From: Thermoanaerobaculia bacterium
GTDB taxonomy: Bacteria; Acidobacteriota; Thermoanaerobaculia; UBA5066; Gp7-AA6
Length of the DNA stretch: 64,000 nucleotides
Reading direction: 5' to 3'
Assembly (NCBI GenBank): GCA_046261875.1
Contig: JBHENW010000024.1
Span: 955 to 64,954, forward strand
Each line of letters starts with the position of its first letter. The first letter of the stretch is position 1. Shown in pieces: positions 4,951 to 62,294 of the stretch. Made by a program: the position numbers and the translations under genes. The notes below the pieces were generated by a model that saw only the letters and a program-made list of their open reading frames with translations, was not told where the DNA came from and ran no database searches.

Positions 4951-5696
4951 GAGCGCGGCTCCTCGCCCCGGCGGAAGAAGACGAGGATGCGTGCGACCGG
5001 CCGGAACCCGAGGGACCTGGCGGCCCGGAGGGACGCCTGGTTGTTCTCGAAGGAGCCCCACACCGGCTCCTTGCCGTGGACCGTCATGTGCTGGATGAGA
5101 AACCGCGCGCAGTCGAGGGCCAGCCCCCGCCGCCGGAAGGGAGCGAGCGTATCGATCGAGACGTCCCAGAGCGTTTCCGTCTCGGAGGCCGTGTAGCAGA
5201 AGGAGACCGGAGCGCCGTCCACGTGCGCCGCGGCCACGTGCGAGCGAGTCTGGAGCGCCTCCTCCAGCTCCCGCCGCAGCTCTTCGGGCACGTGGGGAAG
5301 GGGCGGAGGCCGGTTGCGGCTGAGCAGCGCCACCCGTGACGCTCCCATCGGCGTCGTCTCGGCCACGCCCGGCGGCAGGGAGTGGATCACCGCGACCCAC
5401 CGCTTCCACTCCGGAAGCGTCCGGCCGACGTGATCCTCGGAGTCCGGGGGCACGAGGATCTCCGTCCGTTCAGGGGCGGCGGACGCGGCGTCCCGCAGAG
5501 CATCCGGGTCGGGACGACCGACGACCGCCAGCTGGGGCCACCGCGCCTGGCCGACGATCGAGCCCAGGGGGTCGGTCGACACGCGGCACTCGCCGGAGAG
5601 AAGGATGCTGCGCGTCTCGACCCACTGCGGCGTGTCGGGCAGGTCCCGCAGGAGCGCGGCGGCCGCGCGGTTCGGGGGGTCCGATTCCGCCTGCAT
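4947..5696 (-). CDS. GNAT-family N-acetyltransferase (start uncertain; ATG 5696 chosen)
   Basis: C-terminal acetyltransferase-like segment (FRRRGLALDCARFLIQH...PVWGSFENNQASLRAARSLGF). Track ORF runs to 5837 but that overlaps the DUF4097 gene 3' end. Confidence 0.45.
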   Translation of the reverse strand: MQAESDPPNRAAAALLRDLPDTPQWVETRSILLSGECRVSTDPLGSIVGQARWPQLAVVGRPDPDALRDAASAAPERTEILVPPDSEDHVGRTLPEWKRWVAVIHSLPPGVAETTPMGASRVALLSRNRPPPLPHVPEELRRELEEALQTRSHVAAAHVDGAPVSFCYTASETETLWDVSIDTLAPFRRRGLALDCARFLIQHMTVHGKEPVWGSFENNQASLRAARSLGFRPVARILVFFRRGEEPRS

Positions 5697-5721
5697 GGAG
5701 GCGGAGTCTAGACGCGGCGCG

Positions 5722-6729
5722 TCAGCGAGACCGGGGCTCGACCCGCACGGATCCGCCGCTCGCATGGAGACGCAGCGTCTTCCCTCCGGATCCGAGGCTG
5801 CCCTTGATCTGCCGCCGGGAGATCTCGCCCTGGACACGCACTGGCACGTCCACGGTCACGGGCCCGCCCGACGCGTCGATCTCGAGGTTGGCCTTCGGGT
5901 CCAGCTTCACGAGGATCCCTCCGCCGGACGTCTCGAGCGTCCCGCCGGCCTCGTTGCCCTCCGATAGGTCCGCGCGGATCGAGCCTCCGGAGCTCTCCGC
6001 GTTGACGCGTCCGCGCGCTCCGGTGATCTCGATGGATCCTCCCGAGGTCTGCGCATCGACGTCGGCGCCGATCTCCCGCAACTCGACGGAACCACCGCTC
6101 GTCCGCGCGCGGACCGGGCCGCCGAGGGCGTTCCCCTCGATGTTGCCGCCGGAGCTCTGCACCTCGACCCGGCCTTTGACGTCGCGGACCCGCACCGATC
6201 CGCCCGACGTCGTTGCGCGGACGTCTCCGTCGAGGCGGTCCACGGCGACCGAGCCTCCGGACGTGCTCACGTCGAGGGCGCCGGCGAGGTCCGTCGTGTT
6301 CACGGAACCGCCGGAGGTCTCCAGGTCGGCATCGCCGCGCGTGCCCGTCACCCGGATGCTTCCTCCGGAGGTGTCGATCTGAAGGCGCGTCGGAGCCGGC
6401 ACGCGGACCTCGAAGTGGAGAGAGCCGTAGTTGCCGACGTCGAAGAGGAGGCGCCGCTTGCGTCTGGCCGTCACCTCGACCGCGCCGGGCCGCTCCTCGA
6501 ACTGGAGATCGAAGACGCGCTCGATGTCGCTGCGGCGCGACGTCACGACGACATGGGCTCCGGGCTCGGAGGACCCGGTCACCGTGACGCTGCCGGCGCC
6601 GGCCTCCAGCCGGAACTCGCCCCCCGGGTCGAGCCGCAGGGTCCGCTCGATGCGGGTGTCCGCGGCCGCCAGGGTGGGAACGAAAGCCAGCACCAGAACG
6701 ACGGGCCGGAAATGGACCTTGCGCTTCAT
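5722..6729 (-). CDS. DUF4097-family beta-helix protein (putative adhesin-like), signal peptide
   Basis: MKRKVHFRPVVLVLAFVPTLAAA signal peptide, then >10 iterations of TSGGSV/I.V repeat units characteristic of DUF4097. ATG at 6729; the track ORF upstream of this Met overlaps the cgs 3' end. Confidence 0.7.
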   Translation of the reverse strand: MKRKVHFRPVVLVLAFVPTLAAADTRIERTLRLDPGGEFRLEAGAGSVTVTGSSEPGAHVVVTSRRSDIERVFDLQFEERPGAVEVTARRKRRLLFDVGNYGSLHFEVRVPAPTRLQIDTSGGSIRVTGTRGDADLETSGGSVNTTDLAGALDVSTSGGSVAVDRLDGDVRATTSGGSVRVRDVKGRVEVQSSGGNIEGNALGGPVRARTSGGSVELREIGADVDAQTSGGSIEITGARGRVNAESSGGSIRADLSEGNEAGGTLETSGGGILVKLDPKANLEIDASGGPVTVDVPVRVQGEISRRQIKGSLGSGGKTLRLHASGGSVRVEPRSR

Positions 6730-6797: not shown

Positions 6798-9700
6798 TCA
6801 TGAGGCGGCCCCGGGCAGCCCGGCTGTCTCGGGCTGAGCGCCCAGGGTCACGACGACCTGGTGCTCGACGCCGTCGTCGGCGAGCGGTATGGCGCCGTCC
6901 CGCGACGGCGTGGGGGAGCCGTCCACCTCGACGCGGGCGATGCCTCGCGTGACGCCGTGCGGGTTCTGCACTCGGACCCGGTACCGCGCCGAGTGGTACT
7001 GGAACGTCAGTTCGAATCCGGGCCAGGCCCGCGGGATGCACGGATCGAGCTGGAGCGTCGAGCCCCGCAGGCGAAAACCGAGGATCCACTCGAGGCCGGC
7101 GCGGTACATCCAGCCGGAGGAGCCGGTGTACCAGGTCCACCCGCCCCGTCCGACGTGCGGAAACTCGGCGTAGATGTCGGCTGCGGCGACGTAGGGCTCG
7201 ACTTTGTACCGATAGAGCCCCGCGCGGGTGCTCGCGTGATTGATCGGGTTCAAGATCCCGAAGAGCTCGCCCACCTTGTCGCCCTCGCCGAGCGCCGCGA
7301 AGGCGATGACGGCCCAGAGCGCCGCGTGCGTGTACTGGCCCCCGTTCTCGCGGACGCCCGGCAGGTATCCCTTGATGTAACCCGGATCGAGCGGGCTGCG
7401 GTCGAACGGCGGCGTGAAGAGGAGCACGAGCCCGTCGCCGCGCCGCACGAGGTACTCCTCCAGCGCCGCCATCGCCCGCTGCCGCCGCGCGGGATCCGCG
7501 GCGCCCGAGATCACGCCCCAGGACTGCGCGATCGAGTCGATGCGGCACTCCGTGTTCGAAGCCGAGCCGAGCGGCGTGCCGTCGTCGAAATAGGCCCTCC
7601 GGTACCAGTCGCCGTCCCACGCCTCCCGCTCGAGGGCGACCTTGAGGAAGTCCACGTGTTGCCGCCAGCGCTCGGCCCGGTCGCGATCGCCCCGCGCCTC
7701 CGCGAGCTTCGCGAGCTCCCAGAGGTTGGCGTGGAGGAACCAGGCCATCCAGACGCTCTCACCCCGTCCCTGGTGGCCGACCCGGTTCATCCCGTCGTTC
7801 CAGTCTCCCGCGCCCATGAGCGGCAGTCCGTGCGGGCCCACCTCGAGGCGCGCGTCGAGCGTCCGGGCGCAGTGCTCGTAGAGGGTGGCCGTCTCCTTCG
7901 AGACGGACGGGGCGAAATAGGCCTCGTGATGGTCCTTCTCCAGCGGAGGCCCTTCGAGAAACGGGATTAGCTCGTCCAGCACCGCGGCGTCGCCCGTCAC
8001 TTCGATGTAGTGCGTCACGGCGTAAGGGAGCCAGAGGAGGTCGTCGGAGATGCGCGTCCGCACCCCCTTTCCGGAGGGGGGGTGCCACCAATGCTGCACG
8101 TCCCCTTCGCGGAATTGCCGCGCCGCCGCGCGCAGCAGGTGCTCGCGCGCGATCTCGCGGCGGGCGACCGTCAGCGCCATGACGTCCTGCAGCTGGTCCC
8201 GGAAGCCGTACGCGCCTCCGGCCTGGTAGAACGCCGAGCGAGCCCAGATGCGGCAGGCCAGGGCCTGATAGAGGAGCCAGCGGTTCAGCATGAGATCCAT
8301 GGAGCGATCCGGAGTCCGCACCTGGACCGTGCCGAGGAGCACGTCCCAGAGGGCGCGCACCTTCTCGAGCGACTCCGAGGAATTCTGGGAGCGGAGCTGC
8401 TGGACGACCGCCCTCGCCGATTCCGCGTCCCGCGCCTGCCCGATCGCAAAGACGACTTCGATCTCCGCGCCGGCCGGCAGCCGGACGGGCTGCTGTAGCG
8501 CGGCGCAGGGATCGAAGCCGGCGCCGATCCTCCCAGAGAGCTCCTTGCCCCGCGCGAGCGCCGCGGGGCGGTCGAGCGTCCCGTTGCGCCCGAGAAACTC
8601 CGTCCGGTCCGCGGTCCAGGCCGTCTGCCGTCCCGCCAGATCCGCAAAGGCCACGCGCCCCCGAAATTCTTCGTTCCACGGATTCCTCGCGAAGAGGGCG
8701 CCCGTCTGGCGGTCCAGCTCCGTGACGAGATACGGCGCCGAGCCGCTTCGGGCAGACCCGAGCACCCACTCGACGTAGCCCGTCACGGTCAGCCGGCGGA
8801 AACGATCCGAGCGGTTGCGCAGTCTGAGCCGCGAGACCTTCGCCGGGACGTCGGTCGGCACGAAGAGGGTCAGCTCGAGTGCGATGCCGTGGCTCTCGTG
8901 CTCGAACACGGTGTAGCCCTGTCCGTGCCGGATCACGTAAGGCCATTCCTCGCGGATGGGCAGGGGCGTCGGCCCCCAGATCTCGCCGCTCTCCTCGTCG
9001 CGGACGAAGAGCGCGTCTCCGGGAGGATCGGAGACGGAATCGTTCGACCATGGCGTCAGCTGGTTCAGGCGGCTGTTCTCGGCCCAGATGAATCCGGAAC
9101 CCGACTCGGACACCTGGAAGCCGAACTCCGGGGTCGTGATGACGTTGATCCATGGAGTCGGCGTCCACTGGCCTTCCCCGAGCACGGTGACGTACTCGCG
9201 ACCTTCGGCTTCGAAGCCCCCCAGGCCGTTGAAGAACTCGAGCATGAGCCGCGGCGGCGGGACTTCGGCGGGCGGCTGCACCGGCGCGACCGGCCGCGCC
9301 GGCGTCGTCGCGGGCGGCTGGGCCCGCATGAGGCGGACGACCTGCTCCGCGAGGGCGCCGTGTCGCGAGAGCAGGATGGCGCGGGACGCCGCGCGCAGGA
9401 GATCGCGGCTCTCGGGATCGAGCGACTCGCCCTTGAGGACGAAGATGCCGCCGCGGCCAGGATGCGGGTCTTGCCCGGCCGCCGCCTGCGCCGCCCGGAC
9501 GAGCGATTCGATCGCGCCCTGGAGGTCGCCCGCGTAAGAGTGCGCCTGCTCGTTGACGATCACCAGATCGACCACGAGCCCTTTGAGGCGCCAGTAGTGA
9601 TGCGCGCGGAGGAGCTGCCGGACGATCTCACGATCCTCGCTGTGGTCGATGCGCAGGAGCACGATCGGCGCGTCCCCCGAGATGCCGTGCCCCCAGAGCG

Positions 9701-12700
9701 CCGAGGCGCCCCGCGTGTTGCGCTGGAGCAGCTCCGGCGAGGCGCGCAGCGTCGGATCGAAGTAGAGGACCCGGGTGGCGAGCCGCTGGAAGAGATGCGC
9801 CTCGTCCCCGCTGATCCCGAGATGCCGGAGCTGGACCTGCGCCTGGGTCCAGGCGAGCGTCGCGGTGCGCTCGAAGGCGGCGGTATCCCGGTACTTGTCC
9901 GCGGCCCCGACGAGCGCCTCGCGGTCCTTGCCGGCGAGGGTCGTGAAGGTGATGCGCGCGGTAGCGCCCGGAGCCAGCCGCACGCGCCGGTGGATGCTGA
10001 AGATCGGGTCGAGCACCGGGCCGGCCGTGTTGGACAGGGGATGGCCGTCGTGGACGGCCGCCGGGTTGCGGATCGTCCGGCCCCTGCCGAGGAAGCGCGC
10101 CCGATCCGTCTCGTACTGCGGCGCCCCGACGCTCTCCCCTTCGACGCTCACGACGTGCGCAGCCCAGATGCGCTCCTCCTCCTGGGAGCGCGGGCGTCGC
10201 GTCGCGAGGAGGCCGTCGAGCCGCGGGACGTACTCGGTCTGCACGAAGAGGTTCGAGAACGCCGGGTGGGAGAGGTCGGCAGCAGCGGGCGCCAGCACGA
10301 TCTCCGCATAAGAGGTCACCTCGATCTCCCGCGGGCGCACGCCGAGGTTGGTCAGGGAGACCTGCCGCAGCTCGGCGTCGTCCTCGGGGGAGACGAGGAC
10401 CTCGAGCATCGTGGCGATCGTGCCGTCGCGCCGGCGGATCTCCGCGCGGTCTTCGGAATAGGCCACCTCGTAACTGTCGGCTTCCCGGCCGGCGGGCTGA
10501 TACCCGGCCGACCAGACCTCCCCGCTCGCCGCGTCGCGCAGGAAGACGTAGCTGCCCCACGCGTCGCGCGTGACGTCCTCCCGCCAGCGGGTGACGTCCA
10601 GGCCCCCCCAGCGGCTGAACCCCGAGCCCGCGGCGGTGATCATGACGGCGTATCTCCCGTTGGAGAGCAGGTGGGCGCGCGGGGTCGGATCGTGCGGCGA
10701 CCGGAAGCTGCGCAGGACGGGCGGGATGAAATCGCGCACGTGCAGGTGCGTCTGCACTTCCTCTGCCCGGGGCCGGGCCACGGCGACGCCCCGCGGAGTC
10801 CGCTCCTGCAGGAGGAGCTCGGCGGACCGCACGACCGCATGGGCGTGGAAACGTTCGCGCATGATTCCCGACCGCAGGACGTTGGCGAGCGCCACGATCG
10901 TCATTCCCTGGTGGTGGGCCATGTGGGCGCGCACGACCGTGACCCGTTGCCCTTCCTGAACGCGGGCCGCCGTGAAGTCGAGGGCTTCGTAGAAGCCGTA
11001 CGGACCCGCCGCCCCGGCTCTCGCCAGGCGGCGGAAGTTTTCGACGGACTCCGCCGGCGCGATCATCGCCGCGAGCGCCGTGGCATAAGGCGCCACGACG
11101 AGGTCTTCGGAGAGGCCGCGCTTCAGCCCGAGCCCGGAAACACCGAAGTTCGAATACTGGTAGGTCAGCTCGATGTCCCGGGCGCCGTAGGCGGACTCGG
11201 AAACTCCCCAGGGGACGCCCCGCTCGGCGCCGTACCGGATCTGGCGGTGGACGATCAGCCGCGCGCTCTGTTCGAGCAGGCTCCCCGACGGCGACCGCAG
11301 AACGAGCTCGGGCATGAGGTACTCGAACATCGACCCGGACCAGGAGACCAGCGCCGAGCCGCGTCCCACGGGAGTCAGGGCGCGTCCCAGACGGAACCAG
11401 TGGGTCACCGGGACTTCGCCGAAAGCGACGGCGAGGAAGCTCGTGAGGCGGGCTTCCGAGGCGAGCATGTCGTAGTACCCGGAGTCCAGCCGCCCATCGG
11501 AAGGCCGATAACCGATCGAAAAGAGCTTTCGCGTCGGATCGTAGAGGAATCCGAACTCCATGACGTCGGCCATCTCCCGTACCGTGCGCGCGATGGTCTG
11601 GAGCCGCCGGGCCAGCCCGGCGCCCGCCTCGGCTCTGCGGCGCAGACCGGCGAGGATCTGCCGCACGGTCTCCGGGGTCCCCGCCGGAGAGCCCTCGACG
11701 GGGATCCTTTCCAGCGCGTCCGCCGCCTCGGCGAAGGTCTCCGGCGCTTCGGCAATCGGTGGAAGAGAAGCCTCCAGAGGCTCGAGCCGCGCTCGGATCT
11801 CCTCGGGGAAGGCCGGGGGGGAGAAAGCGCCCGTCTCCACCCACGCGGCGGACAGGAACAGGTCGCGTCGATGGCTTTCGATCCCGTCCCGGACCGCGCC
11901 CGACCAGAAAACGACTTCGGTCCATGCGGGGCCCTCCTCTTCGGCGAGGGCCTGGGAGGCGTCCACGAGAACCGCGGCGCGCGCGGCGAGATCGCCCAGG
12001 CGCCCGCGCCACTCCGCCGGGCTCCGCGGGAGGACATGCGCCATCTCCTCGATCTCCTCGAGAACGCGCTCGAGCTCGCGGGTCGTGCCGGCGCGGCCTC
12101 GCCGCTCACCGCGCGCTTCTTCGAATGCTTCGCGGGCGAGATGCAACGCATCGCCGATGCCCGCCAGTGCCTGCTCGCCCAGAGCGGGCTCCCGAAGCTG
12201 CTCGATGCACGCTTCCTGCAGCGCCAGCAGGTGCCCGGCGAGGTTCCCGCTGTCCACAGTGGACACGTACCGTGGCTCCAGCGCCGCCAGCCGTTCCGTG
12301 TCGTACCAGTTGTAGAAGTGGCCGCGGTAGCGCTCGAGCCGGCCCATGCTGGCGAGCGTCGCTTCGAGCCGCTCGACGAGCTCGAGCGTCCCGATCCACC
12401 CCAGGTCGTGGGCAGCCGCGGCCGACAGCAGATAGAGGCCCATGTTCGTCGGGGAGGTGCGGTGGGCCACGACCGGTTTGGGATCCTGCTGGTAGTTGTC
12501 GGGCGGCAGCTGGTTGTCCAACGGCGTGACGAAGGTCTCGAAGTAGCGCCAGGTCTGCCGCGCGATCCGCCGCAGGTACAGCTCCCCGGCGGGGGTCAGG
12601 CCGGGGGCATCGGCGTCTCGGGGCGGCAGGCTGATGGCCCGAGCCACCGCCGGAGAGGCCGCCCACAGGAGGAGGAAAGGCGCCGCCAGGTCGAAGGCCA

Positions 12701-15578
12701 GGGGGCGCCAGATCGCGACGGCTGCCCCGAGGGCAAGGGCGATGAGGGGCGCGGGGACCATGCGGCGGTAGAAGCCGCTCAGCTTCAGGTCCAGCCCGCT
12801 CTGCGCCTGCGCCGCGGTCACCCATTCGAGCAGGCGCCGCCGCGCGATCAAGCGGGCGAATGTGCGCACGGCGGCGTCCGTCATGAGGTACGCCTGGTAC
12901 GCGAGCAGCGTCAGGTTGATCGCCGCCTGTGAGACCGCCAGCGTCACGTCCCTGCCGAGCCCCGCGACGAAGCTTCGCTTGGAAATCCCGAGCCGGCTTG
13001 GTAAGAGCGACGCGATCAGGTGGAGCGCGCTCGGTCCCGCAATCGTGGCGACGATGAAAGAGGCCCACAGCTCCGGCGAGCCGCCCGGCAGGAGCCAGCT
13101 CGCGGCGAACGTCAGCACCGCGGCCGGCGCCGACAGCGTCCGGCGCAGGTTGTCGGCCATCTTCCACCGCGCGATGGCCGTGATGCCGCGGCGCCGACGG
13201 CCCTTCGCGTCGCGCGCGATGCCCAGGATCCATGGGAGGAGCTGCCAGTCCCCGCGCGCCCACCGGTGCTGGCGGGCGGCGGCGACTTCGTAATGGCCCG
13301 GAAAGCTCTCGAAGAGCTCCAGGTCGGATACGAGACCGGCCCGGGCGAAGAGACCTTCGAAGAGGTCGTGGGAGAGGAGGGAGTTCTCCGGCACACGGCG
13401 CGCGAGGGCCGTCTCGAACGCGTCCACCTCGTAGAGTCCTTTTCCTGTGTAGATGCCTTCCCCGAACAGGTCCTGGTAGACGTCGGAGGTCGCGAACGCG
13501 TACGGGTCGATACCCTGCGGCCCAGAAAACACACGCTGGTGCACCGTGCCGGGCCCGTGGAACGGAAGGGTCGTCGTCACGCGCGGCTGCAGCACGGCGT
13601 GCCCCTCGACGATGCGGTCCGCCGCCGGGTCGAAGACGGGGCGGTTCAAGGGGTGCGCGATCGTCCCGACGAGCCGGCGCGCGACCCCGCGGTTCAACCG
13701 CGTGTCGGCGTCCAGCGTGATGACGAAACGGACCCCGGGGGGAGGCGGCCCCGGTGACAGGAACGTCGTGTCCCGGGCGCCGCGCAGCCACCGATTGAGC
13801 TCGTGGAGCTTGCCGCGCTTGCGTTCCCAGCCGATCCACGACTTCTCCGACGCGTTCCAGACGCGGTGGCGATGGAGGAGAAGGAATCGCGGCCCCCCAC
13901 CTTGCGGGGGGGCCGGGTGGCGCGCGTTCAGCTCGGCGATCGCGGCGCGGGCGACCGCCAGCAGGAGCTCGTCCTCCGGTAGCGATTCCGACGGCGCGTC
14001 GACCCAGTCGGTCAGCAGCGCGAAGCGGATCGCCCCGTCGTCGTTGGCGAGGGCGTGGACCTCGAGGCGTCCGATGAGCGCGCGGATGTCCTCCTCGTCG
14101 GTCAAGAGAGCGGGCACCGCGACCAGCGTCGCGAGCTCCGGTGGCACCCCGTGCGCGAGCTCCAGCTTGGGAAGGCGCCTCGGCCCGATCAGATCGGTGA
14201 CGTCCCGGTTCACGACGGCCGTTGCCAGGTCGGAGGCCGGGACGAGCGCGAAGAGAGCGATCAGGAGGAGCGGGAGCCCCGTCATGCCGGTCGCGGCCGC
14301 GAGAACGACCGGCAGGGCGATGAGCGCGGCCGTCAGCACGAACACGCTCGTGACGTATCCGGGCGTGGCGAAGGCGACGAAGGCGCGCCGGAGCCAGCGC
14401 GCGGGCGGAACGCGGTACCCGAGCTCCTTCTCGAACGCCTCGCGCCCACGGGAGATCAGGTAGAAGCCGGGATCCGAGCTTCGCGCGTCCCCGCCGGCCG
14501 CGGCTCCCTCCGCCGCGGCCTCCCGGCCCTTCTCGGCGGCCCGCCGCGCGACCTCGAGCTCCGCGAGCCGGGAGCCCCGCGCCAGCTCCTCGACGGCGTG
14601 GCGATACCGGTCGCGCGTGGCGAAGTCCATTGCCGCCACGAGGGTTCCCTCGCGCAGCGCCGCTTCCACGAGGCTGACCTCCTCGAAGAAGGTCTCCCAG
14701 TCCGTCGAGGAGAGAAGGCGCATGCTCGTGATGACGTTGCGCACCGTCACGTGCGACGCGACCTGCTCCTGGTGCTCCTGCCGGACGAACTCCTCCGGCG
14801 TCGTGCCCTGCGCCGCGAGCCTCTCGTTCAGCCACGACGCGGCGGGGGTCGAGGCCGGGTCCCGGTCGCGGAGACGCTCGGCGAGTTGAACGGCGAAGGC
14901 GGTGGAGAGCGTCCCGGATTCGAGCTCGCGGAGCGCTTCGCGCGGCTTCTCGCCCGGGCCTCCGACCCCGAGGAGCACGTCGGCGAGCCGGTCGGCGCGC
15001 TCCCGGTCCGCTCGCCGCTGCACGATGTATTCGACGAGGCGGCGCAGGTTCTCGACGAGCACGAGTCGCAGCGAGATCGCGATCGCCCACAGCTCGCCGA
15101 TGGTCAGCGGCTGCACGCGCTGGTACGCCGTCACGAATCGGCGCAGCGCCTCCGCCTCGAATCGGCTGTCCGTGTGCTCGACGAACGCCCAGGCGATCCC
15201 GAGCACGCGGGGATACCCGGCGAGGGGCCCGTCCGCGAGCTTGGGCAGCTCGCGGTAATAGCTCGGCGGGAGATCTTCGCGGATCTCGCGCAGCTGCTCT
15301 TCCACGATGTGGAAGTTGTCCACGAGCCATTCCGCCGCCGGGGAGATCGCGCGCTCCTCCCGGATCGCCTGGCCGATCGCCCGGTAGGAAGCGAGCAGGA
15401 CGCGGTGGTTCTCGCGCAGCCGGGGGAGCAGCCGGCTCCCGCGGCGCTTGCCGGGCAGCACGCGATGGGTCGCGGCGAGCGATTCGGCGAACTCCTCGAG
15501 CCGCTCGAGAGAGAACAGCTCCCCGCGGATGGGCAGGTCGGCGGGATGGGCGGAGAGAAATACCGGAGGGGCGGCCAT
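6798..15578 (-). CDS. ndvB: cyclic beta-1,2-glucan synthase (NdvB/ChvB/Cgs; GT84 + GH94 domains), 2926 aa
   Basis: Size; conserved Cgs N-terminal region; multiple TM helices; GT84 region ([13 protein letters not shown]); C-terminal GH94 cellobiose-phosphorylase-like domain ([23 protein letters not shown]..., [13 protein letters not shown]..., [14 protein letters not shown]). Single uninterrupted 8.8-kb ORF, ATG start. Confidence 0.9.
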   Translation of the reverse strand: [2926 protein letters not shown]

Positions 15579-15703
15579 CAGGATCCCGACAAAGATATGA
15601 CGGGGACGAACCCCGCCCGCCCGCGCGTCATCGCAACGGGCCCGTTCCGCTCGCGGCGCGAGGGCCGCGGCCCGCTACCCGTTCGTCGCCGGTGCGACCC
15701 GGC

Positions 15704-17227
15704 TCACCGCCCCGCCGGCTCGACGCGGAAGACCCGCCCGGTCTTCGGGAACACCTTCATCGTCTTCTCGGTCGGGTTGAAGACGCCGAAGTCCAGGATG
15801 TACACGAGGCCGTCCGGGCCGATCTGGACGTCCACGGGCCTCTCGAGGCCGACCTCCAGGTCGAGACGCGAGGCCGGTTGGGGCGCGCCCGCGCCGCGGT
15901 TGCGCGCGAAGACGGTGCGGCGTCCCGTCTGCAGATCGACGGCTTCCACCTGGAAGCCCGTGCGGACGTCCGGGCGGACCGCGTCCGTCGTGGGCTTGAA
16001 GTCTCCCATCTCCGAGATCAGGAGCTGGCCCGACCAGCGGGAGAAAGGCCCCCCCGCCGGCACGACGGACATGCCGCCGAGCGCCGCGTGCGGCTCGGTG
16101 ACCGTGACGAGAAGCGATTTGTCGGGTGCCGCGAGCCCGCTCGCCGCGTGGTCGAAAACGAACTCCAGGCCCGAATGTCCCGGAGCGAGGAACTGCGCGG
16201 GCGCCCGGTGCTTGGGCGCCGTGACCGGCTCGAGGGCCCCGGAGTAATCCGGCCAGCCGTACCAGACGCCCGGCCGGACCCGATAGATCGCGTCGGGGTC
16301 ATCGAGGACCGGACGCGTGCCGCGGATGTCAGCGCCATGCATCCCAACGAGCAGCGTGCCGCGCGGGTCGAAGGCGAGCGCGACAGGGTTGCGGAATCCC
16401 CAGCCGACGAGCTCGGGCGTCGTCGCGCCGGCACGCAAACGGAAGATCGCGCCCGTGCACGGGACTTTCCCGGCGACCTGCGTCGCCGCCGATTCTCCGT
16501 AGGCCTGGTAGGCCCCCGTCGTCGCCTTGTCGTCGTCGGGATCTGTCAGCGCGTTGTCGTCGGTGAACGTCTTACCCGTCAGAACGACGTCGCGGCAGGG
16601 GATGTCCCGCGTCTTCGGACGCTTCTTCAGCCACTTCTGGTTGACCGGATCCTGCGAGGAGACGACGCCCGAGTTGGTCGCGCTCCCGACGCCGAAGTAG
16701 AGGCTCCCCTGGCCGTCGAATGCCAGGTAGTTCACCCAATGGTCGCCGTCGCCCGGCATCCCGCGGATGACGGGCTCGGCCGCTCCACCGGAGGGACGCA
16801 GCCGGCTGATCCCCCAGGTCCCGTCCTTCTCCTCGTGCGACAGATACAGCCAGCCGCCGCGGAACGCGAGCCCGACCGCCGTCTCGCCGGTCGGCGCTCC
16901 GGGGCCTTCCCAGCGGACCTCTTCGAGCTCGCCGTTCCCCGCGACCTTGAGAATCTTCGGCTTGAGCGTCGGGACGGCGACGCTGTGCGACTCGAGGATG
17001 TAGAGGCTGCCCTTGTCGTCCCAGGCCATCGAGCTCGGGAAGTTGAGGCCCTCGACGACCTGCACGGCGCGGTAGCCGTCCGGAACCTGGATGGCGTCGG
17101 CGGGCGCGACTTGCGCCTTGTAGCTCGCGGCCTGCTCCGCGCCGCGGGTGTCTAGCGTGCCGCCGCCGCAGCCGACCAGCGCGCCGCACGGCGCGAGGAG
17201 GAGTGCGGCCCGGAGCAGCGCTCTCAT
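15704..17227 (-). CDS. PQQ-dependent sugar/sorbosone dehydrogenase-like beta-propeller lipoprotein (SGDH family), paralog 1
   Basis: Lipobox signal MRALLRAALLLAPCGALVGC; beta-propeller motifs shared with paralog at 24998..26524 (WGFRNPVALAFDP.G.L, GVWYGWPD, YILDFGV). ATG 17227 overlaps the DUF2231 stop (ATGA). Confidence 0.65.
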   Translation of the reverse strand: MRALLRAALLLAPCGALVGCGGGTLDTRGAEQAASYKAQVAPADAIQVPDGYRAVQVVEGLNFPSSMAWDDKGSLYILESHSVAVPTLKPKILKVAGNGELEEVRWEGPGAPTGETAVGLAFRGGWLYLSHEEKDGTWGISRLRPSGGAAEPVIRGMPGDGDHWVNYLAFDGQGSLYFGVGSATNSGVVSSQDPVNQKWLKKRPKTRDIPCRDVVLTGKTFTDDNALTDPDDDKATTGAYQAYGESAATQVAGKVPCTGAIFRLRAGATTPELVGWGFRNPVALAFDPRGTLLVGMHGADIRGTRPVLDDPDAIYRVRPGVWYGWPDYSGALEPVTAPKHRAPAQFLAPGHSGLEFVFDHAASGLAAPDKSLLVTVTEPHAALGGMSVVPAGGPFSRWSGQLLISEMGDFKPTTDAVRPDVRTGFQVEAVDLQTGRRTVFARNRGAGAPQPASRLDLEVGLERPVDVQIGPDGLVYILDFGVFNPTEKTMKVFPKTGRVFRVEPAGR

Positions 17228-17722
17228 CGCGCGCCTCCCCTCGCTTCGCGCATGCCGATCTCGAGCGCTTCCGGGTCCTTGTTCTCCACGACGCCCACCT
17301 TGTGGTGATAGCTCAGGTTGCCGCCGAGCCAGCCCGAGACGCCGAGGAGCGCGAAGCCGAGGATCGACGTCCCGAGCGCGAGCGGCCACCTTCCCGTTTC
17401 GAGCGCCGCGTCCCCGCGCCGCATCCAGAAGGAGAGCGCGTAGAGCACGACGACGGCGACGTTGAGCCTCGCATGCCACGCGGCGAGACGCTTTCCCCGG
17501 GCGCTCATCGTCACGCCGAAATATTCGATCAGGCCGAAGACGGCCGCGAGCAGCGCGAAGGCGAGGCCCGCTCCGATGCAGACGTAGGAAAAGCGGTACC
17601 AGAAAGGATCCGACCCCCCGGCGTGGATCACGTCGCCGATGAGAGCGAGGAAGAATGCGCCGATGGGGATCGGCACGAGCATGGGGTGGATGGGGTGATC
17701 GCCGATGGCGGCCTTGCTCTTC
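17224..17722 (-). CDS. DUF2231-family integral membrane protein
   Basis: 4 TM helices, HPIHPMLVPIPIGAFF N-terminal motif typical of DUF2231; GGAGGGG RBS upstream of ATG 17722; translationally coupled to downstream SGDH. Confidence 0.6.
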
Positions 17723-17832
17723 ATGGTGGCCCCTCCGCTGGCGTCTCGCGGACGCGTTTTGGAGACAGGAGGATGCAAGACACGGACCGGTGATGGTGCC
17801 GCCCTTGCTTATGCTCCGAGCCTGAAGAAGAG

Positions 17833-20118
17833 ATGAAAAACGCCCGACCGGTTCTCGCGGCCGCTTTCCTGTGCGCATTCGCTTCGGGCGCGGGTCCGGC
17901 CGGGGCGGCGGAGGGACCGGGGGCGCTGCGCGGCGTGGTGGCCGACGAGGCGGGCCGGGCGGTGGCCGGGGCCAACGTGACCCTGGAGACTGCCCGCGGC
18001 CGGCCGCGGACGACGACGGACTCTGACGGCGGCTTTTCCCTCGAGGCTTCCGCTCCCGTAACCCTGCGGGTCGAAGCTCCCGGATTCCGCCCTCTGGAAC
18101 GGCGCGTGGAACCGGCCGATCTCGAGGCCGGCCTGCGTCTGGTGCTCGTGGCGGCCGGGGTGTCCGAACGACTCAGCGTCACGGCGACCCGAACGCCCGC
18201 CCGCCTGGCGGACACGGCGGCGAGCGTCGTCGTCCTGAGCTCGGAAGACCTGGCCTCTTCCGCGTCCCCCGCCCTGGACGACGCGTTGAGACAAGTCCCG
18301 GCTTTTTCGCTGTTCCGGCGGTCGAGCAGCCGGACGGCGAATCCGACCTCGCACGGCGTCTCGCTGCGCGGCGCGGGAGCCAGCGGCGCGAGCCGCGCGG
18401 TCGTGCTCGATGACGGCGTGCCGTTGAACGACCCGTTCGGCGGGTGGATCTACTGGGGGCGCACCCCGCGGGCGGCGGTCGAGAGAATCGAGGTACTGCG
18501 CGGCGGTGCGTCCGATCTCTACGGCAGCGCGGCTCTCGGGGGGGCCGTTCAGATGCTCCGGCGGAGCCCGGCCGATCCCTTTGCCGTGACCCTCGAGACG
18601 TCCTACGGATCACAGGACACTCCGGAGGCGTCGTTCTCCGCATCGGGCCGCCGGGACGGCTGGGGGGCCGTGCTGTCGGGCGAGGCTTTCCGGACCGGCG
18701 GCTACGTGCTCGTAGAGGAGGACGCGCGGGGACCGGTCGATGCGCGCGCCGCGTCGCGGCACGGTACCGTCGACCTGGCCGTCGAGCGCGGCGGCGGCGG
18801 CTCGCGGCTCTTCCTGCGCGGCTCGCGGTTCGAGGAGTCGCGTGAGAACGGAACCCCGCTCCAGGAGAATGACACGGAGAGCCTCCACCTCGCCGCGGGC
18901 GGCGACTGGAGGCTGGGCGGCGGCGGCCTCACGGCGCGGCTCCACGGCGCCGACCAGGATTTCCGCCAGACGTTCTCGGCGATCGCGGCGGACCGCGCGA
19001 CGGAGCGGCTGACGCGGCTCCAGCGGGTCCCCTCCGACGCGGCCGGAGCCGCGCTGCAATGGACGGGAGCCGCGGGTGGGCGGCACCTCCTGGTCGCGGG
19101 CGCGGAGGGACGGCAGGTCCGCGGAGAGAGCCGCGAGGAGGTTCTCACCGATGGCGGTTCGAGCTTCGTGGACGCGGGCGGCCGCGAGCGCACCGCCTCC
19201 GTCTTCCTGGAGGACATCGTCACCGCCGGCGCCCGCTGGACGCTGACGGCGGGGGTGCGCTTCGATCGCTGGTGGAACGCGGAGGCCCGATCGGCCACGC
19301 GCGCGGCGCGCGACGCAGCACCGGTCGTCACGCCACTGTCCGGCCGTTCGGAGACTGCCTGGAGCCCGCGGCTCTCGGCGCTCCATCGCCTCTCCGGCGC
19401 CGTCTCGCTGACCGTTTCCGCCTACCGGTCCTTCCGCGCCCCGACCTTGAACGAGCTGTATCGGACCTTCCGCGTCGGAAACGCCCTGACGCTGGCCAAC
19501 GAGGCGCTCGCGCCCGAGCGTTCCCGGGGCGTGGACGCGGGAGCGATCCTCTCGTCCGGCTCCGGCCGCCTCGGCGCCCGGGCGACCCTTTTCTGGATGG
19601 AGATCGAGGACGCCGTCGGCAACGTGACCCTCTCCGTGACCCCTTCGCTCATCACGCGCCGGAGACAGAACATCGGGGAGATCCGCACCCGGGGAACCGA
19701 GCTCGACTTCGACTGGCGCCCGACGGCGGGCTGGAAGCTGGCCGGCGGCTACCAGCTCGCGGACGCGACCGTCCGGTCGTCGCCCGCGGAGCCGGCTCTC
19801 GCCGGCCTGCGCGTCCCGCAGGTCCCCCGCCATCGCGTCTCGCTGCAAGCGGTTTATTCGAAACCCGCCCTGGCCGCGGCGGGGCTCTCCCTGCGCTGGA
19901 CCTCCAGCCAGTTCGACGACGACAAGAACCTCCTTCCCCTCGCGTCCTTCTGGACGGCGGACGCCGTCGTCTCCCGGAGCCTGTGGCGCGGCCTCGAGGG
20001 CTTCCTCGCCGTGGAGAACGTCTTCGACGAGCGCTACGAGATCGGCCGCACACCCGTGCGCACCCTGGGGCCGCCGAGGGCCCTCCGCGGCGGCCTGCGG
20101 CTGCGGATGCCGGACTGA
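17833..20118 (+). CDS. TonB-dependent receptor with N-terminal carboxypeptidase-regulatory-like domain
   Basis: Signal peptide; Cna-B/CarboxypepD_reg-like segment (GVVADEAGRAVAGANVTLE...DSDGGFSL); plug domain (VPLNDPFGGWIYWG); C-terminal beta-barrel ending in aromatic residue region. Confidence 0.85.
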   Translation: MKNARPVLAAAFLCAFASGAGPAGAAEGPGALRGVVADEAGRAVAGANVTLETARGRPRTTTDSDGGFSLEASAPVTLRVEAPGFRPLERRVEPADLEAGLRLVLVAAGVSERLSVTATRTPARLADTAASVVVLSSEDLASSASPALDDALRQVPAFSLFRRSSSRTANPTSHGVSLRGAGASGASRAVVLDDGVPLNDPFGGWIYWGRTPRAAVERIEVLRGGASDLYGSAALGGAVQMLRRSPADPFAVTLETSYGSQDTPEASFSASGRRDGWGAVLSGEAFRTGGYVLVEEDARGPVDARAASRHGTVDLAVERGGGGSRLFLRGSRFEESRENGTPLQENDTESLHLAAGGDWRLGGGGLTARLHGADQDFRQTFSAIAADRATERLTRLQRVPSDAAGAALQWTGAAGGRHLLVAGAEGRQVRGESREEVLTDGGSSFVDAGGRERTASVFLEDIVTAGARWTLTAGVRFDRWWNAEARSATRAARDAAPVVTPLSGRSETAWSPRLSALHRLSGAVSLTVSAYRSFRAPTLNELYRTFRVGNALTLANEALAPERSRGVDAGAILSSGSGRLGARATLFWMEIEDAVGNVTLSVTPSLITRRRQNIGEIRTRGTELDFDWRPTAGWKLAGGYQLADATVRSSPAEPALAGLRVPQVPRHRVSLQAVYSKPALAAAGLSLRWTSSQFDDDKNLLPLASFWTADAVVSRSLWRGLEGFLAVENVFDERYEIGRTPVRTLGPPRALRGGLRLRMPD

Positions 20119-20133
20119 GCGAGGAGCGGAAAC

Positions 20134-20640
20134 ATGAAAAGGCGAAACGATCCGTGGGCGGGCCTTCTCGCCGGACTGGCCGCCGGCCTCTGCGCGTCCT
20201 GGACGATGAACCAGTTCCAGTTCCTCTGGAACCGGTTCCGGTCGTATCAGCGGGAGATGCCTGAGGACGAGCAGGGCGAAGACACGACGGTGAGGACGGC
20301 GCGCGCGGTCTCCGTGGGGCTCTTCCGCCACGAGCTGTCGCAGAAAGAAGAGCGCTGGGCGGGGCCGCTCGTTCACTACGCGTTCGGCGCGGCCGTCGGA
20401 GGCCTCTACGGCGCGATCGCCGAGAAGGAGCCGCGCGTCACCGCGGGCGCCGGCATCCCGTTCGGGACCGCGTTCTGGCTGGTCGCGGACGAATCCGCCG
20501 TCCCGCTGCTCGGGCTCTCCGAGCCGCCCGGCCGTTACCCTCTTTCCGTCCACCTCTACGCGCTCGTTTCGCACTGGGTCTTCGGAGCGACGGCGGAGTT
20601 CGTCCGGCGCGCGCTCCGCGGGCGCCTTTCCCGCTTCTGA
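20134..20640 (+). CDS. hypothetical small membrane protein
   Basis: 168-aa ORF with 3-4 hydrophobic segments immediately downstream of TonB receptor; no recognisable catalytic motif. Confidence 0.45.
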   Translation: MKRRNDPWAGLLAGLAAGLCASWTMNQFQFLWNRFRSYQREMPEDEQGEDTTVRTARAVSVGLFRHELSQKEERWAGPLVHYAFGAAVGGLYGAIAEKEPRVTAGAGIPFGTAFWLVADESAVPLLGLSEPPGRYPLSVHLYALVSHWVFGATAEFVRRALRGRLSRF

Positions 20641-20644
20641 CGAT

Positions 20645-21787
20645 TCAGCCGCCGGCCGGGGAGTCGGACGCCGCGTCCAGCCAGCCTCCCCGGAAACCGG
20701 CGCGCCGCAGACCCCGGACGAGCGGGACGGAATTCCGCATGAGCTTCCAGATCATCTCCGAGCGCTCGTTCTCGATCATCACGACCACGGGTCCCTGATC
20801 GAGGCCGTAGTAGCCGCGCGCGACCCACCCCGTCCCTCCCTCCGCCCGGAACGAGGGATTGAAGCTGCACATGAACCCGTACCGGCTCCGCATCTGGGGA
20901 TAGCGCTCATTGAAGAACGCGATCGTCGGCCGGACGATCTCGGGCGCGAACGGCAGCGAAGTCACCGCGGCCCATGGCGAGATCGTCCCGTCGTCCGGAC
21001 CGAACGGAACTCCGCGGGCCCGGTAGTCGTAGAAGCGCCGTGTCACGCCGCCGATGCGCCGGACGACGTTGCCCGGCCCGTCGCTCGCCGTCACTCCCCA
21101 GCAGCGGTCGCCGTACGCGGTGAAGCCGTGGGGGTTCCTCGTCGCGTATCGCTGCTGGACGTAGGTCGCGCGGCGGCTGTTCTCGAAATAGTCCGTCTTC
21201 TTCGCGCGCATGAACGCGTCGCGGATGCCGCGGAAGTCGATCCAGATGTGCGAAAGCTGATGCGTGAAGAGCGGCCCGGAGTAGAGGAACCGTTCCCCGT
21301 ACAGGTTCTTCCAGCGGTAGGTCTTCGCCCACGCGTCGTAACTGCCGGGACCGATCGCGTGCCTCCGAGAACCGAGCGCGAGGACGTAGAGGATCAGCGC
21401 CTCGTTGTATCCGTTCCAGGACGTGGGAAGGAACCCGGACTCCGGGTGCCACCCATGGGAGATGAGGCCATTCGGCCTCAGGGTCCAGCGCCAGTCCGCG
21501 CGCTCGTAGAGCCGTTCGCTCGTCTGCCGGATCTCCCGCTCGATCGGCGAGTCCCCGTCGAAGAAGGCGCCGGCCGTGATGGCCCCGCCGAGAAGGATCC
21601 CGGAATCCATGGTGGACAGCTCGCACCCGTGCGCGCGCCGCCCCGTCCGCATGTCGAGAAAGTGATAGTAGAACCCGCGGTTGCCCGTCGCGTCGGCCTC
21701 TACCCCCTGCGGGCTTCGATCGAAGAAGCGCAGAGTCGTCGCCGTGCGCTCAGCGGCCTCCGTCCGGGTCAGCCAACCCCGCTTCAC
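20645..21787 (-). CDS. DUF3131/GH144-like (alpha/alpha)6 glycoside hydrolase, putative endo-beta-1,2-glucanase; the in-frame region 21788..~21960 lacks stops and looks like genuine coding sequence (see findings)
   Basis: Motifs GFYYHFLDMRTG, WNGYNEALILYVLALGS, YSGPLFTHQLSHIWIDFRG, YYGLDQGPVVVMIENERSEMIWKLM resemble the DUF3131/GH144 family as I recall it. GTG at 21787 is the first canonical start. Confidence 0.5.
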   Translation of the reverse strand: MKRGWLTRTEAAERTATTLRFFDRSPQGVEADATGNRGFYYHFLDMRTGRRAHGCELSTMDSGILLGGAITAGAFFDGDSPIEREIRQTSERLYERADWRWTLRPNGLISHGWHPESGFLPTSWNGYNEALILYVLALGSRRHAIGPGSYDAWAKTYRWKNLYGERFLYSGPLFTHQLSHIWIDFRGIRDAFMRAKKTDYFENSRRATYVQQRYATRNPHGFTAYGDRCWGVTASDGPGNVVRRIGGVTRRFYDYRARGVPFGPDDGTISPWAAVTSLPFAPEIVRPTIAFFNERYPQMRSRYGFMCSFNPSFRAEGGTGWVARGYYGLDQGPVVVMIENERSEMIWKLMRNSVPLVRGLRRAGFRGGWLDAASDSPAGG

Positions 21788-21995
21788 GGCGACCGGGTAG
21801 CACGTCAGGGCGAACCCGACCGCCGCGATGCTGCAGGGGGCGCCGTACCGCGTGTTGTCGGGGATCAGACCGTTGCCGGGGTTCGCCTCGTGAAGGAAAT
21901 AGCCGAAGGTCTCGCGCTGCAGCTTCTCTAGCTCGCCTTCGGCCGACTCGGGCGCGGACGGGCGCCGCCCACGCTCCCGCGCGCGCCCGACCGTC

Positions 21996-23387
21996 TCAGC
22001 CCTCCTCGTCCAGCGCGGCCGCCGCGCCCTGCACCGCCTCCGCGAAAGTCGGGTGGATGAACGTCGCGTCCCGCACGACCTGGTACGACCCCTTCGCGTT
22101 CATCAGGGTCACGTACACGTGAACCATCTCGGCGGCCTCGGCCGCCAGGATCGCCGCGCCGAGGATCCGGCCGGACTTTCGATCCGCGAGGAGCTTGATG
22201 AAGCCGCCGGGCTCCCCGACCTCCCGCGCCTTGCCGTTCTTCGGCATCTCGAAGCGCGCGATACGCAGGGGGCGTCTCGCCCTGCGGGCCTCCGCCTCCG
22301 TCATACCGACCCGGCCGAGCTGGGGGTCCGTGTAGATCGCGTAAGGCAGGACGCGGTCCGTCGTCCGCGATCGGTCGCCGGCGAGCTGCGAGAGGAGGAC
22401 CCGGTAGTCGTCCCATGCCGTGTGGGTGAACATCGGCCCGCCGCGCACGTCCCCGGCGGCCCAGACGCCGCGGACGCGCGTCGCCAGCCGCCGGTCCACG
22501 CGGAGAAACCCGTCGCGCGAGCTCCGCAGGCCGATCTTTCCGAGGCCGAGGTCGTCCGTGTTCGCGCGGCGGCCGACCGCCACGAAGAGGTGCGAGCCCT
22601 CCAGGCGGACGCTGCCGCCGTCCTGGCGGATCTGTAGCTGGACTCCCTCTCCAGCGCGGCGCGCCCGCTCGACCCGGGCATTGAGCCGGAACGCGATCTC
22701 TTCGGATTCCAGGAACTGGCGCAGCGCGCCGGCGACCTCGGGGTCCTCACGGCCGGCGACCTCGGGAGACTCGTCGATGACCGTGACCCGCGCGCCCATC
22801 CGCCGGTAGAACTGCGCCATCTCGAGGCCGGTGTAGCCGCCCCCCAGGATGAGCAGGTGCTCCGGCAGCTCCTTGCCGTCCAGCCAGTTCTCCGAGTCGA
22901 TGCGAGGGAGCTTCGACAGCCCCGGGACTGAAGGGATGCGGCTGCGCGTGCCGGTATTGATGACCACCCGCCGCGCCCGGACGTCGGTCGCGCCGACCCG
23001 GAGGCGGAAGCCCTTTCTGTCCCGGCCTTCGAAGCGGGCATGGCCCTCCAGGAGCCGCGGGGCTTCGCCGCCGTGAAAGCCCTCCCGCAGGCCCGCCCGG
23101 AACTGGGTGACGACGTCCCGCGCGCGAGCGAGGACCCGGGAGAAGTCCGGCTTGACGGCGAGGATGCTCAGCCCGAACTCGTCGCCGCGGCGGGCGAGCT
23201 GGGCAACCCGGGCGGAAGCGATCACGGCTTTGGTGGGAGAGCACCCGAAGTTGACGCAGGAGCCGCCGAGGTCCTGGCGCTCCGCGAGCGCCACATGCAT
23301 TCCTTTCTTTGCCAGGGCGTGGGCGAGCGGAATTCCCGCCTGTCCGCCGCCGATCACGAGGACGTCGAACGTCTCCGGATGAGCCAA
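21996..23387 (-). CDS. FAD-dependent pyridine nucleotide-disulfide oxidoreductase (dihydrolipoamide dehydrogenase / mercuric reductase family)
   Basis: FAD site VLVIGGGQAGIPLA, redox-active disulfide GGSCVNFGCSPTK, NAD site LLILGGGYTGLEMAQ, C-terminal dimerisation domain with HPT motif (FIHPTFAE). Confidence 0.8.
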   Translation of the reverse strand: MAHPETFDVLVIGGGQAGIPLAHALAKKGMHVALAERQDLGGSCVNFGCSPTKAVIASARVAQLARRGDEFGLSILAVKPDFSRVLARARDVVTQFRAGLREGFHGGEAPRLLEGHARFEGRDRKGFRLRVGATDVRARRVVINTGTRSRIPSVPGLSKLPRIDSENWLDGKELPEHLLILGGGYTGLEMAQFYRRMGARVTVIDESPEVAGREDPEVAGALRQFLESEEIAFRLNARVERARRAGEGVQLQIRQDGGSVRLEGSHLFVAVGRRANTDDLGLGKIGLRSSRDGFLRVDRRLATRVRGVWAAGDVRGGPMFTHTAWDDYRVLLSQLAGDRSRTTDRVLPYAIYTDPQLGRVGMTEAEARRARRPLRIARFEMPKNGKAREVGEPGGFIKLLADRKSGRILGAAILAAEAAEMVHVYVTLMNAKGSYQVVRDATFIHPTFAEAVQGAAAALDEEG

Positions 23388-26524: not shown

Positions 26525-26588
26525 GCCGGCCCTATCGGCCCGGTCTAGGCGCCCGGAGCGGGCGGTTCGGGCGAGGAGCGCCGAACGG

Positions 26589-59189: not shown

Positions 59190-62230
<3,041 letters not shown>

Positions 62231-62238
<8 letters not shown>

Positions 62239-62290
62239 TCGTGCATTCCTGCACTTTTGGGCCGCAAAAATGCAATATGCACGATTGACC
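62231..62290. promoter_or_regulatory. perfect 16-bp inverted repeat GGGGTCAATCGTGCAT ... ATGCACGATTGACCCC separated by 28 nt, in the divergent pgm / CAP-gene control region
   Basis: Read directly; the left arm contains the pgm TTG start (62236..62238, minus strand), the right arm ends 4 nt before the CAP-gene ATG (62295); the spacer carries a nested imperfect repeat TGCACTTTTGG / CAAAAATGCA. Confidence 0.5.
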
Positions 62291-62294
62291 CCCA

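Follow-up and report, generated by a model that had tools for sequence, protein, structure and literature searches.

Cyclic β-1,2-glucans are familiar above all as osmoprotectants and factors in host interaction that Rhizobiales, Brucella and Xanthomonas export, and CpSGL (Cpin_6279; 5GZH/5GZK), the founding endo-β-1,2-glucanase of glycoside hydrolase family GH144, serves the use of external β-1,2-glucan. In the cyclic glucan synthase (Cgs; ChvB/NdvB) of Agrobacterium tumefaciens, hereafter AtCgs, roles have been assigned to D527 and D624 (UDP binding), D739 (catalytic base), R773 (RW motif), Y694 (priming tyrosine), D1104 and E1300 (cyclase) and D2528 (phosphorylase acid), alongside R586 and R776 (Sedzicki et al.; PMC10901819). 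The GH144 protein XcSGL (XCC2207) of Xanthomonas campestris hydrolyses β-1,2-glucan and has a signal peptide comprising residues 1–27; the characterised enzymes, CpSGL among them, were cloned without theirs (PMC12102758). GH144 also includes the exo-acting sophorohydrolase BDI_3064 (PMC11842490). A Cgs gene and a gene for a GH144 homologue occur together in the stretch of DNA considered here, a window of 64,000 nt (G+C about 70%) from a metagenome-assembled genome (MAG) of a Thermoanaerobaculia bacterium (Acidobacteriota; GenBank assembly GCA_046261875.1, contig JBHENW010000024.1, positions 955 to 64,954). From homology, residue conservation and gene neighbourhoods it is judged, on balance, somewhat probable that the GH144 homologue is a cytoplasmic endo-β-1,2-glucanase which would give a breakdown or trimming arm for the polymer made by Cgs.

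The glucanase homologue is encoded on the minus strand at 20645..22009. It matches the Pfam family PF10091 (‘Glycoamylase’) at 1.4e-81 and every solved GH144 protein: XcSGL (8XUL) at 7e-124, with 47% identity over 418 residues, BDI_3064 at 4.8e-37 and CpSGL (5gzh) at 1.9e-34. A first-pass annotation, made from the letters of the DNA, had described it as DUF3131/GH144-like; the GH144 part of that description stands, whilst PF11329 (DUF3131) gave no match at E ≤ 0.01. Of the two ends it proposed for the gene, 20645 is correct, but 21960 is out of frame and is not a start codon. The catalytic and clan residues are in place. E187 (in GYNE) aligns with the glutamine of the 8XUL E239Q mutant (GYNQ), which is the position of the general acid (CpSGL E211, XcSGL E239), F232 and Y313 correspond to the SGL-clan residues F286 and Y367 of XcSGL, and D119 (STMDSG) stands at the proposed general-base position, an assignment made from motif and alignment, where XcSGL has SSVDTA, AtCgs has SAVDSGN (D1104) and CpSGL has E142. 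All four residues are invariant in an alignment of 16 clade members. The alignment with XcSGL begins at window residue 13, opposite chain residue 49 (residue 63 in the numbering of the paper; barrel 55–477), and continues to the C-terminal end of the barrel, and this end-to-end alignment to solved barrels points to an (α/α)6-barrel fold. A score to GH15 or GH63, or the loss of acidic residues, had been named in advance as speaking against GH144; it was GH144 structures that were matched, and the acidic residues are kept, so that on its sequence the gene is a true member of the family. A GH189-like transglycosylase, with an aspartate base within a VDSG-like motif as in Cgs, was also considered and found unsupported, the hydrolase XcSGL having an aspartate there too. 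The Cgs and the GH144 gene each add a member to a known family, and public annotation of a generic kind already exists for both; the GH144 product MFN2385032.1 is titled ‘MAG: glucoamylase family protein [Thermoanaerobaculia bacterium]’.

The synthase gene (6798..15578, minus strand) runs from an ATG start and encodes 2926 amino acids. Its product matches the AtCgs chains 8rf0/8rf9 colinearly (E = 0, 2419 bits), two stretches of alignment together covering the protein, and it matches the cyclase domain of the Thermoanaerobacter enzyme TiCGS (8wy1) at 2.4e-127. Pfam GH94 domains were found (GH94_b-supersand twice at 2.6e-171, Glyco_hydro_94 at 2.1e-121), and a weak PF10091 match over residues 1368–1580 corresponds to the GH189 cyclase domain. 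When sub-regions were aligned to the solved chain, in which 8rf0 numbering is the native numbering, all ten AtCgs functional residues (D527, R586, D624, Y694, D739, R773, R776, D1104, E1300 and D2528) were seen to be conserved. The GT84 (GT2-like) motifs LLTDWVDAP, WERKRGK, LDADT, LSHDLFEG and QHRWARGDW align with D527, R586, D624, D739, R773 and R776; GIDPYAF aligns with the AtCgs motif GIDPYVF of the IF1-homology loop, which holds the priming tyrosine; TVDSGN and LASEARL align with the GH189 cyclase residues D1104 and E1300, and GDWNDG with the catalytic aspartate of the GH94 phosphorylase, D2528. A crude hydropathy scan placed hydrophobic segments, candidate parts of the six-helix anchor by which Cgs enzymes sit in the inner membrane, at residues 404–430, 837–855 and 939–978. 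The gene looks fully functional, because the full-length match, the domains and the role-bearing residues are all conserved, and the earlier description of an intact NdvB/Cgs-type synthase with GT84 and GH94 parts is thereby borne out. The same annotation had considered a complete Cgs in this lineage noteworthy in itself, which it is not: more than 7800 homologues were found at E ≤ 1e-50, the best 120 of them nearly all full-length (about 2820–3070 amino acids, 62–75% identity), so Cgs is common outside Rhizobiales and that of the window is taxonomically unremarkable.

What sets the GH144 protein apart is its N-terminus. A homology search at E ≤ 1e-20 returned at least 8000 proteins, and the best 120 are nearly all 422–466 amino acids long and cover 95–100% of the query. 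They belong to a very large, uncharacterised clade, which runs to thousands of sequences, chiefly of soil Acidobacteriota and Gemmatimonadota, and in which 8–30 polar residues, without a hydrophobic stretch, precede the first barrel helix. The maximum 12-residue hydropathy within the first 45 residues, which reach into the first barrel helices, is 0.05 in the window protein and −0.2 to 1.9 across the clade, and no hydrophobic N-terminal segment was seen in 16 clade members or in the members linked to Cgs. Since the clade is without a signal peptide, both it and the window protein are predicted to be cytoplasmic. The β-1,2-glucanases in the papers cited here are all treated as secreted or come from clusters for external glucan, none being described as cytoplasmic; a literature search, of incomplete coverage and so only weak evidence of novelty, gave no account of cytoplasmic GH144 enzymes or of a GH144–Cgs pairing. 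Within the clade, the GH144 genes of L053 (5952–7217; a contig binned as Dokdonella, Gammaproteobacteria) and L071 (10001–11263; a Gemmatimonadales MAG) are 84% identical, a likeness which suggests horizontal transfer or a binning error.

The genomic association of the two families was studied in a sample of 160 clade loci, half of them from species-representative genomes and half from metagenomes (80 each), with flanks of up to 10 kb, which were searched with the window's proteins; among the metagenome matches listed there was no relative closer than 67%. A Cgs-like gene lies beside GH144 in seven of the 160 loci (L053, L056, L067, L071, L112, L122 and L160), as a full Cgs or as a GH94-only gene. 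In L056, L071 and L122 a full Cgs starts 4–330 nt downstream of GH144 on the same strand, and in L067 a full Cgs, again on the same strand, is separated from it by one pgl-like gene. In L053 a GH94-only gene (6908–11188; 1426 amino acids) directly downstream of GH144 has 58% identity to the window Cgs's C-terminal half and is without the GT84 and cyclase parts; in L112 a GH94 gene (6923–8521), also directly downstream, matches Cgs from residue 1619 at 44% identity before the contig ends after 535 residues; and L160 has a convergent GH94 gene at a contig end. By their similarity, the stand-alone GH94 proteins of L053 and L112 look like Cgs-derived phosphorylases. Co-directional cases make up six of the 113 loci that have at least 2 kb of downstream sequence, against a chance adjacency to one particular gene of well under 1% of loci, the latter being a rough estimate and not a formal test. 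On the clade tree the linked GH144 genes lie scattered: only those of L071, L122 and L053 cluster, and for the rest the nearest neighbours, at 75–88% identity, are unlinked. This scatter indicates that the linkage has been gained or lost repeatedly. The association is thus real at the level of the family, but facultative, and in the window it is loose. The functional link between a synthase and a cognate hydrolase proposed in the first-pass annotation is in this form retained; the uptake function that it attached to the pair is not, as discussed below.

The tight pairs stand among genes of sugar-phosphate metabolism. The order is zwf … tal–pgi–DUF2090–pgm–GH144–pgl–Cgs in L067 (2203–12015), tal–GH144–Cgs in L122 (8083–9231), and two MscS channels–gnd-like–GH144–Cgs–rpiA in L071 (6239–9939, 20008–20733), whilst the GH94-only cases read phosphoketolase (xfp)–class-I aldolase–GH144–GH94 in L053 (2322–5854) and transketolase (tkt)–DeoC-type aldolase–pgm–GH144–GH94 in L112 (526–5538). 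Over the whole sample, one or more sugar-phosphate genes lie within 10 kb of GH144 in 43 of the 160 loci, and one subfamily of phosphoglucomutase (PGM), of about 600 amino acids, recurs in 20 of them (14 near-full-length matches), often adjacent to GH144. These partners are all cytoplasmic enzymes, in agreement with the missing signal peptide, and the context suggests that central metabolism receives glucose or glucose-1-phosphate from the GH144 clade. A mechanism can be proposed in which Cgs, by homology, would prime on a tyrosine, elongate with UDP-glucose (GT84), trim by phosphorolysis (GH94) and cyclise (GH189), acting on the cytoplasmic face of the inner membrane (PMC10901819). GH144 would cut its presumed substrate, linear or cyclic β-1,2-glucan, inside the cell, on the side where Cgs works; the fragments could pass to a GH94 phosphorylase or module to yield glucose-1-phosphate, which phosphoglucomutase would convert to glucose-6-phosphate, with entry to the pentose-phosphate pathway. 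In its putative coupling to the synthase, GH144 would act as a turnover or quality-control arm. A bolder proposal, judged unlikely, is that the signal-less clade would be the first intracellular β-1,2-glucanase family, forming with Cgs (or its GH94-only derivatives) and a dedicated PGM a cytoplasmic make-and-break cycle wired to the glucose-6-phosphate and pentose-phosphate pathways. The polymer would then be a glycogen-like pool that turns over, as an osmolyte or carbon reserve, and would not be made solely for export, and the window would represent a loosened instance with a start-impaired glucanase.

Several observations weigh against a breakdown arm for Cgs in the window. No Cgs lies within reach in 153 of the 160 clade loci, and none of the four closest Cgs homologues (67–75% identity) has a separate PF10091/GH144 gene within 10 kb, three of them having the full 10 kb of flank and the fourth (P0121) only 118 nt upstream. 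The window's own two genes are 5 kb apart with four unrelated genes between them, two on the opposite strand, and so do not form an operon. No ChvA/NdvA/Cgt-type exporter, GH3 β-glucosidase or separate phosphorylase (SOGP) was found among the open reading frames (ORFs) scanned across the window. As GH144 includes the exo-acting BDI_3064, the window protein may not be endo-acting; hydropathy and alignment, and not a dedicated predictor, are the basis for calling the signal peptide absent; and the GH144 gene, which is without a canonical start codon, may be poorly expressed or newly inactivated. The first of these points are also what would be expected if the proximity were coincidental and GH144 served cytoplasmic sugar catabolism, of imported β-1,2-oligosaccharides or of some other glucan, unrelated to the neighbouring Cgs. 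Other neighbours are indeed commoner than Cgs: DUF1440 is found within 10 kb in 35 of the 160 loci and GH39 in 46 (in L056, the one locus inspected, it is immediately upstream, at 7161–8606), besides the sugar-phosphate genes and the PGM subfamily already described. The closest Cgs orthologues adjoin a PIG-L/NPCBM_assoc protein instead, and genes on the opposite strand part GH144 from Cgs in the window. Coincidence does not readily account for a single-copy gene of 8.8 kb lying immediately beside GH144, in the same direction, in 5–6 of 113 informative loci, well over the rough expectation, nor for the facts that the linked loci are not one sub-clade and that the arrangement of the window is kept in a relative of 88% identity; it is regarded as possible, though rather unlikely. 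With respect to the wider window, the sugar-phosphate partners of the tight pairs are absent from the vicinity of GH144. ORFs of 560–590 amino acids at 46–49.5 kb and 61–62.5 kb are GlpK, GlpD and a PGM/PMM-family protein, the gene of which (60844..62523) has only 27% identity to the GH144-linked PGM subfamily.

The start of the GH144 gene requires separate consideration. The frame is open from 22099, and no canonical start precedes GTG 21787 (21785–21787), which is its first ATG, GTG or TTG; a start there would drop 58 conserved residues aligned with the first barrel helices of XcSGL, and GH144-homologous coding sequence reaches at least 21961. In a DNA alignment with the two closest relatives for which DNA was available, L161 and L162 (81% and 77% identity), the site of their in-frame ATG start is occupied by ACG at 22007–22009 (minus strand), to which the coding sequence of the window gene probably extends. 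The relatives' ATG lies inside the 3′ end of the upstream gene and reads CTGGATGAG, and the window reads CTGGACGAG; the change from ATG to ACG is synonymous in the overlapping frame (GAT to GAC). A frameshift after GTG 21972 had been entertained as the cause of the missing start and was dropped, as this alignment puts the relatives' ATG at ACG 22009. The public protein MFN2385032.1 starts at CTG 21922 (21920–21922) and is 425 amino acids long, the window product from that CTG being identical to it (P0241), and in the 88%-identical relative the gene as called by JGI starts from an internal methionine and encodes 335 amino acids. The upstream gene encodes a pyridine nucleotide-disulfide oxidoreductase (Pyr_redox; 21996..23387, minus strand; Pfam Pyr_redox_2/Pyr_redox_dim), and its 3′ end overlaps the ancestral GH144 start by 14 nt, in the window (21996–22009) as in L162 (1485–1498). 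Homologues of it lie within 10 kb of GH144 in 11 of the 160 loci; those with Pyr_redox directly upstream, at 56–64% identity, are all Thermoanaerobaculia-like, and the same order is seen in L162 and in the 88%-identical relative (contig P0003, JGI 3300056388), which makes Pyr_redox a conserved upstream partner in Thermoanaerobaculia. In L003 (about 1315), L016 (about 3351) and L026 (about 1265) the two genes share a GTGA or ATGA stop–start overlap, and such overlaps in other Thermoanaerobaculia relatives indicate that translational coupling of Pyr_redox and GH144, two enzymes with no obvious connection, is the ancestral state.

Weak non-canonical initiation, very recent silencing or a base error in the assembly are possible explanations of this anomaly. 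Silencing would make the gene an incipient pseudogene whose start was lost by the change from ATG to ACG, and the ACG at the relatives' ATG position, the lack of any ATG, GTG or TTG before 21787 and the likewise truncated JGI call in the relative all accord with it. The ORF itself does not look like that of a decaying gene: its 454 codons contain neither a frameshift nor a stop, and two mismatches at 139 clade-invariant columns are typical of intact members (0–7 in the others). ACG 22009 and CTG 21922 could serve as weak starts, the latter being that of the 425-amino-acid product annotated by NCBI; a base-call or consensus error in the assembly is a further possibility; and should the same defect be present in the relative, the ORF has outlasted divergence to 88% identity, which would speak for continued selection. 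Silencing is accordingly rated as improbable. With only non-canonical starts at hand the expression level of GH144 is uncertain, and that the protein is made at all is a presumption of the breakdown arm proposed here.

The genes between GH144 and Cgs bear on the uptake function mentioned above, in which the TonB-dependent receptor would import β-1,2-glucan fragments and GH144 would process them in the envelope. The first-pass annotation had seen only a DUF2231/GSDH-like pair and the TonB receptor between the two; these are present, and a DUF1440 gene was overlooked. The receptor (17833..20118, plus strand) has Pfam Plug and TonB_dep_Rec_b-barrel domains and an N-terminal CarboxypepD_reg domain, and is followed 3′ by the gene for the DUF1440 membrane protein (20134..20640, plus strand; PF07274 at 3.3e-12), which converges on GH144 across a gap of 4 nt. 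Nearer to Cgs on the minus strand are a DUF2231 membrane protein (17224..17724, start inferred; PF09990 at 2.7e-35) and, overlapping it by 4 nt (ATGA), a β-propeller of the PQQ glucose/sorbosone dehydrogenase type (GSDH-like; 15704..17227; PF07995 at 1.2e-7, 31.8 bits against a cut-off of 25), a probable lipoprotein with the N-terminus MRALLRAALLLAPCGALVGC, whose gene lies 125 nt upstream of Cgs. In favour of uptake are the position of a CarboxypepD_reg TonB receptor between the two genes and the retention of the block in the close relative. Across the clade sample, however, homologues of the receptor were found in one of the 160 loci and of the GSDH-like protein in none; all NCBIfam models fell below their cut-offs for the receptor, SusC/RagA (TIGR04056) reaching 80 bits against 368, and there is no SusD-like partner and no adjacent inner-membrane sugar transporter. 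The receptor and DUF1440 are transcribed together, on the strand opposite to GH144, and a GH144 protein without a signal peptide would not meet periplasmic material. An uptake role is thus considered very improbable. Conservation of the neighbourhood, proposed as a check by the first-pass annotation, is found in the 88%-identical relative; across the clade sample the TonB receptor, DUF1440, DUF2231 and GSDH are not conserved partners, DUF2231 lying within 10 kb in three of the 160 loci (four with L056, by Pfam). DUF1440 and DUF2231 do recur near GH144 across Acidobacteriota classes, in varying order and orientation (L056, 1918–3936; L022, L025 and L030).

On the minus strand the order of transcription is Pyr_redox, GH144, DUF2231, GSDH-like, Cgs, a secreted 335-amino-acid protein and a GNAT acetyltransferase (4947..5837), with the plus-strand TonB receptor and DUF1440 genes sitting between GH144 and DUF2231. 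The gene order of the P0003 contig is identical, the DUF2231/GSDH-like pair included, and ends in a Cgs fragment of 1230 amino acids at the contig end. The secreted protein (5722..6729, minus strand), encoded 3′ of Cgs, has a signal-peptide-like N-terminus. Its previous assignment to DUF4097 finds no support in Pfam at E ≤ 1; there is weak similarity to LiaG (NCBIfam NF049997, 6.8e-16, 58 bits against a cut-off of 285), and a distant relationship to DUF4097/LiaG is possible. In the four closest Cgs homologues the downstream gene encodes instead a PIG-L (de-N-acetylase family)/NPCBM_assoc protein of about 870 amino acids (L163, 8887–11502; L164, 18774–21410; L165, 18810–21428; L166, 22807–25446), beyond which lie genes for a solute-binding protein and an ABC ATPase; the window is without this partner and has the gene for the LiaG-like protein in its place. 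A terminator-like GC-rich hairpin with a T-rich tail was noted at 15599–15617 (minus strand), in the gap that separates the GSDH-like gene from Cgs and 21 nt 5′ of the Cgs ATG; a scan of the window for promoters and terminators gave no promoters and nine terminator-like sites, barely over the background of 5.3 ± 2.3 expected. A second GSDH-like paralogue (24998–26725, minus strand) lies between genes for an AAA ATPase and an M1 peptidase, which are adjacent in the 88%-identical relative, so that this paralogue is a lineage-specific insertion or duplication.

The genes of the window are ordinary in themselves, and what they add is a clade-level lead, on cytoplasmic location and on linkage to Cgs, GH94 and PGM, together with the start-codon anomaly. 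If the GH144 clade cleaves cytoplasmic β-1,2-glucan, turnover of the polymer inside the cell would be open to many abundant soil bacteria, and Cgs would gain a previously unrecognised accessory enzyme. Compared with known systems, the window Cgs shares with those of A. tumefaciens (8RF0/8RF9) and Brucella its length class and the order N-terminal domain–GT84–predicted transmembrane segments–GH189–GH94; it differs in belonging to an acidobacterial MAG and in being about 100 residues longer, the extra residues falling roughly between 900 and 1320. In Rhizobiaceae chvA/ndvA adjoins chvB/ndvB, whereas the window Cgs has no adjacent ChvA/NdvA-type exporter gene. The GH144 protein resembles XcSGL over the whole barrel, with the same acid glutamate, clan phenylalanine and tyrosine and base-position aspartate, whilst the signal peptide and the disordered C-terminal tail of XcSGL are missing from it and from its clade. 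CpSGL is of the same family and fold class, and its E211 and E142 have equivalents in the window protein, but it is far more distant than XcSGL and its base is a glutamate in place of the aspartate. Synthases genetically tied to a hydrolase of the same linkage are known from BcsA/BcsZ (cellulose) and OpgH/OpgG–OpgD (osmoregulated periplasmic glucans; GH186, PMC10514313), which offer an analogy and not a homology; the BcsZ and OpgG–OpgD hydrolases act outside the cytoplasm, whereas Cgs and GH144 would both be cytoplasmic and their linkage is facultative. The catabolic SGL/SOGP clusters of Listeria, Chitinophaga and Bacteroides (PMC11842490) likewise combine a β-1,2-glucanase with a GH94 enzyme that yields glucose-1-phosphate, and may be compared with the GH144, GH94-only and PGM genes of L053 and L112. 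Those clusters carry binding proteins, transporters and β-glucosidases for external glucan, none of which was found here, and the GH94 partner here is Cgs itself or a derivative of its C-terminal half.

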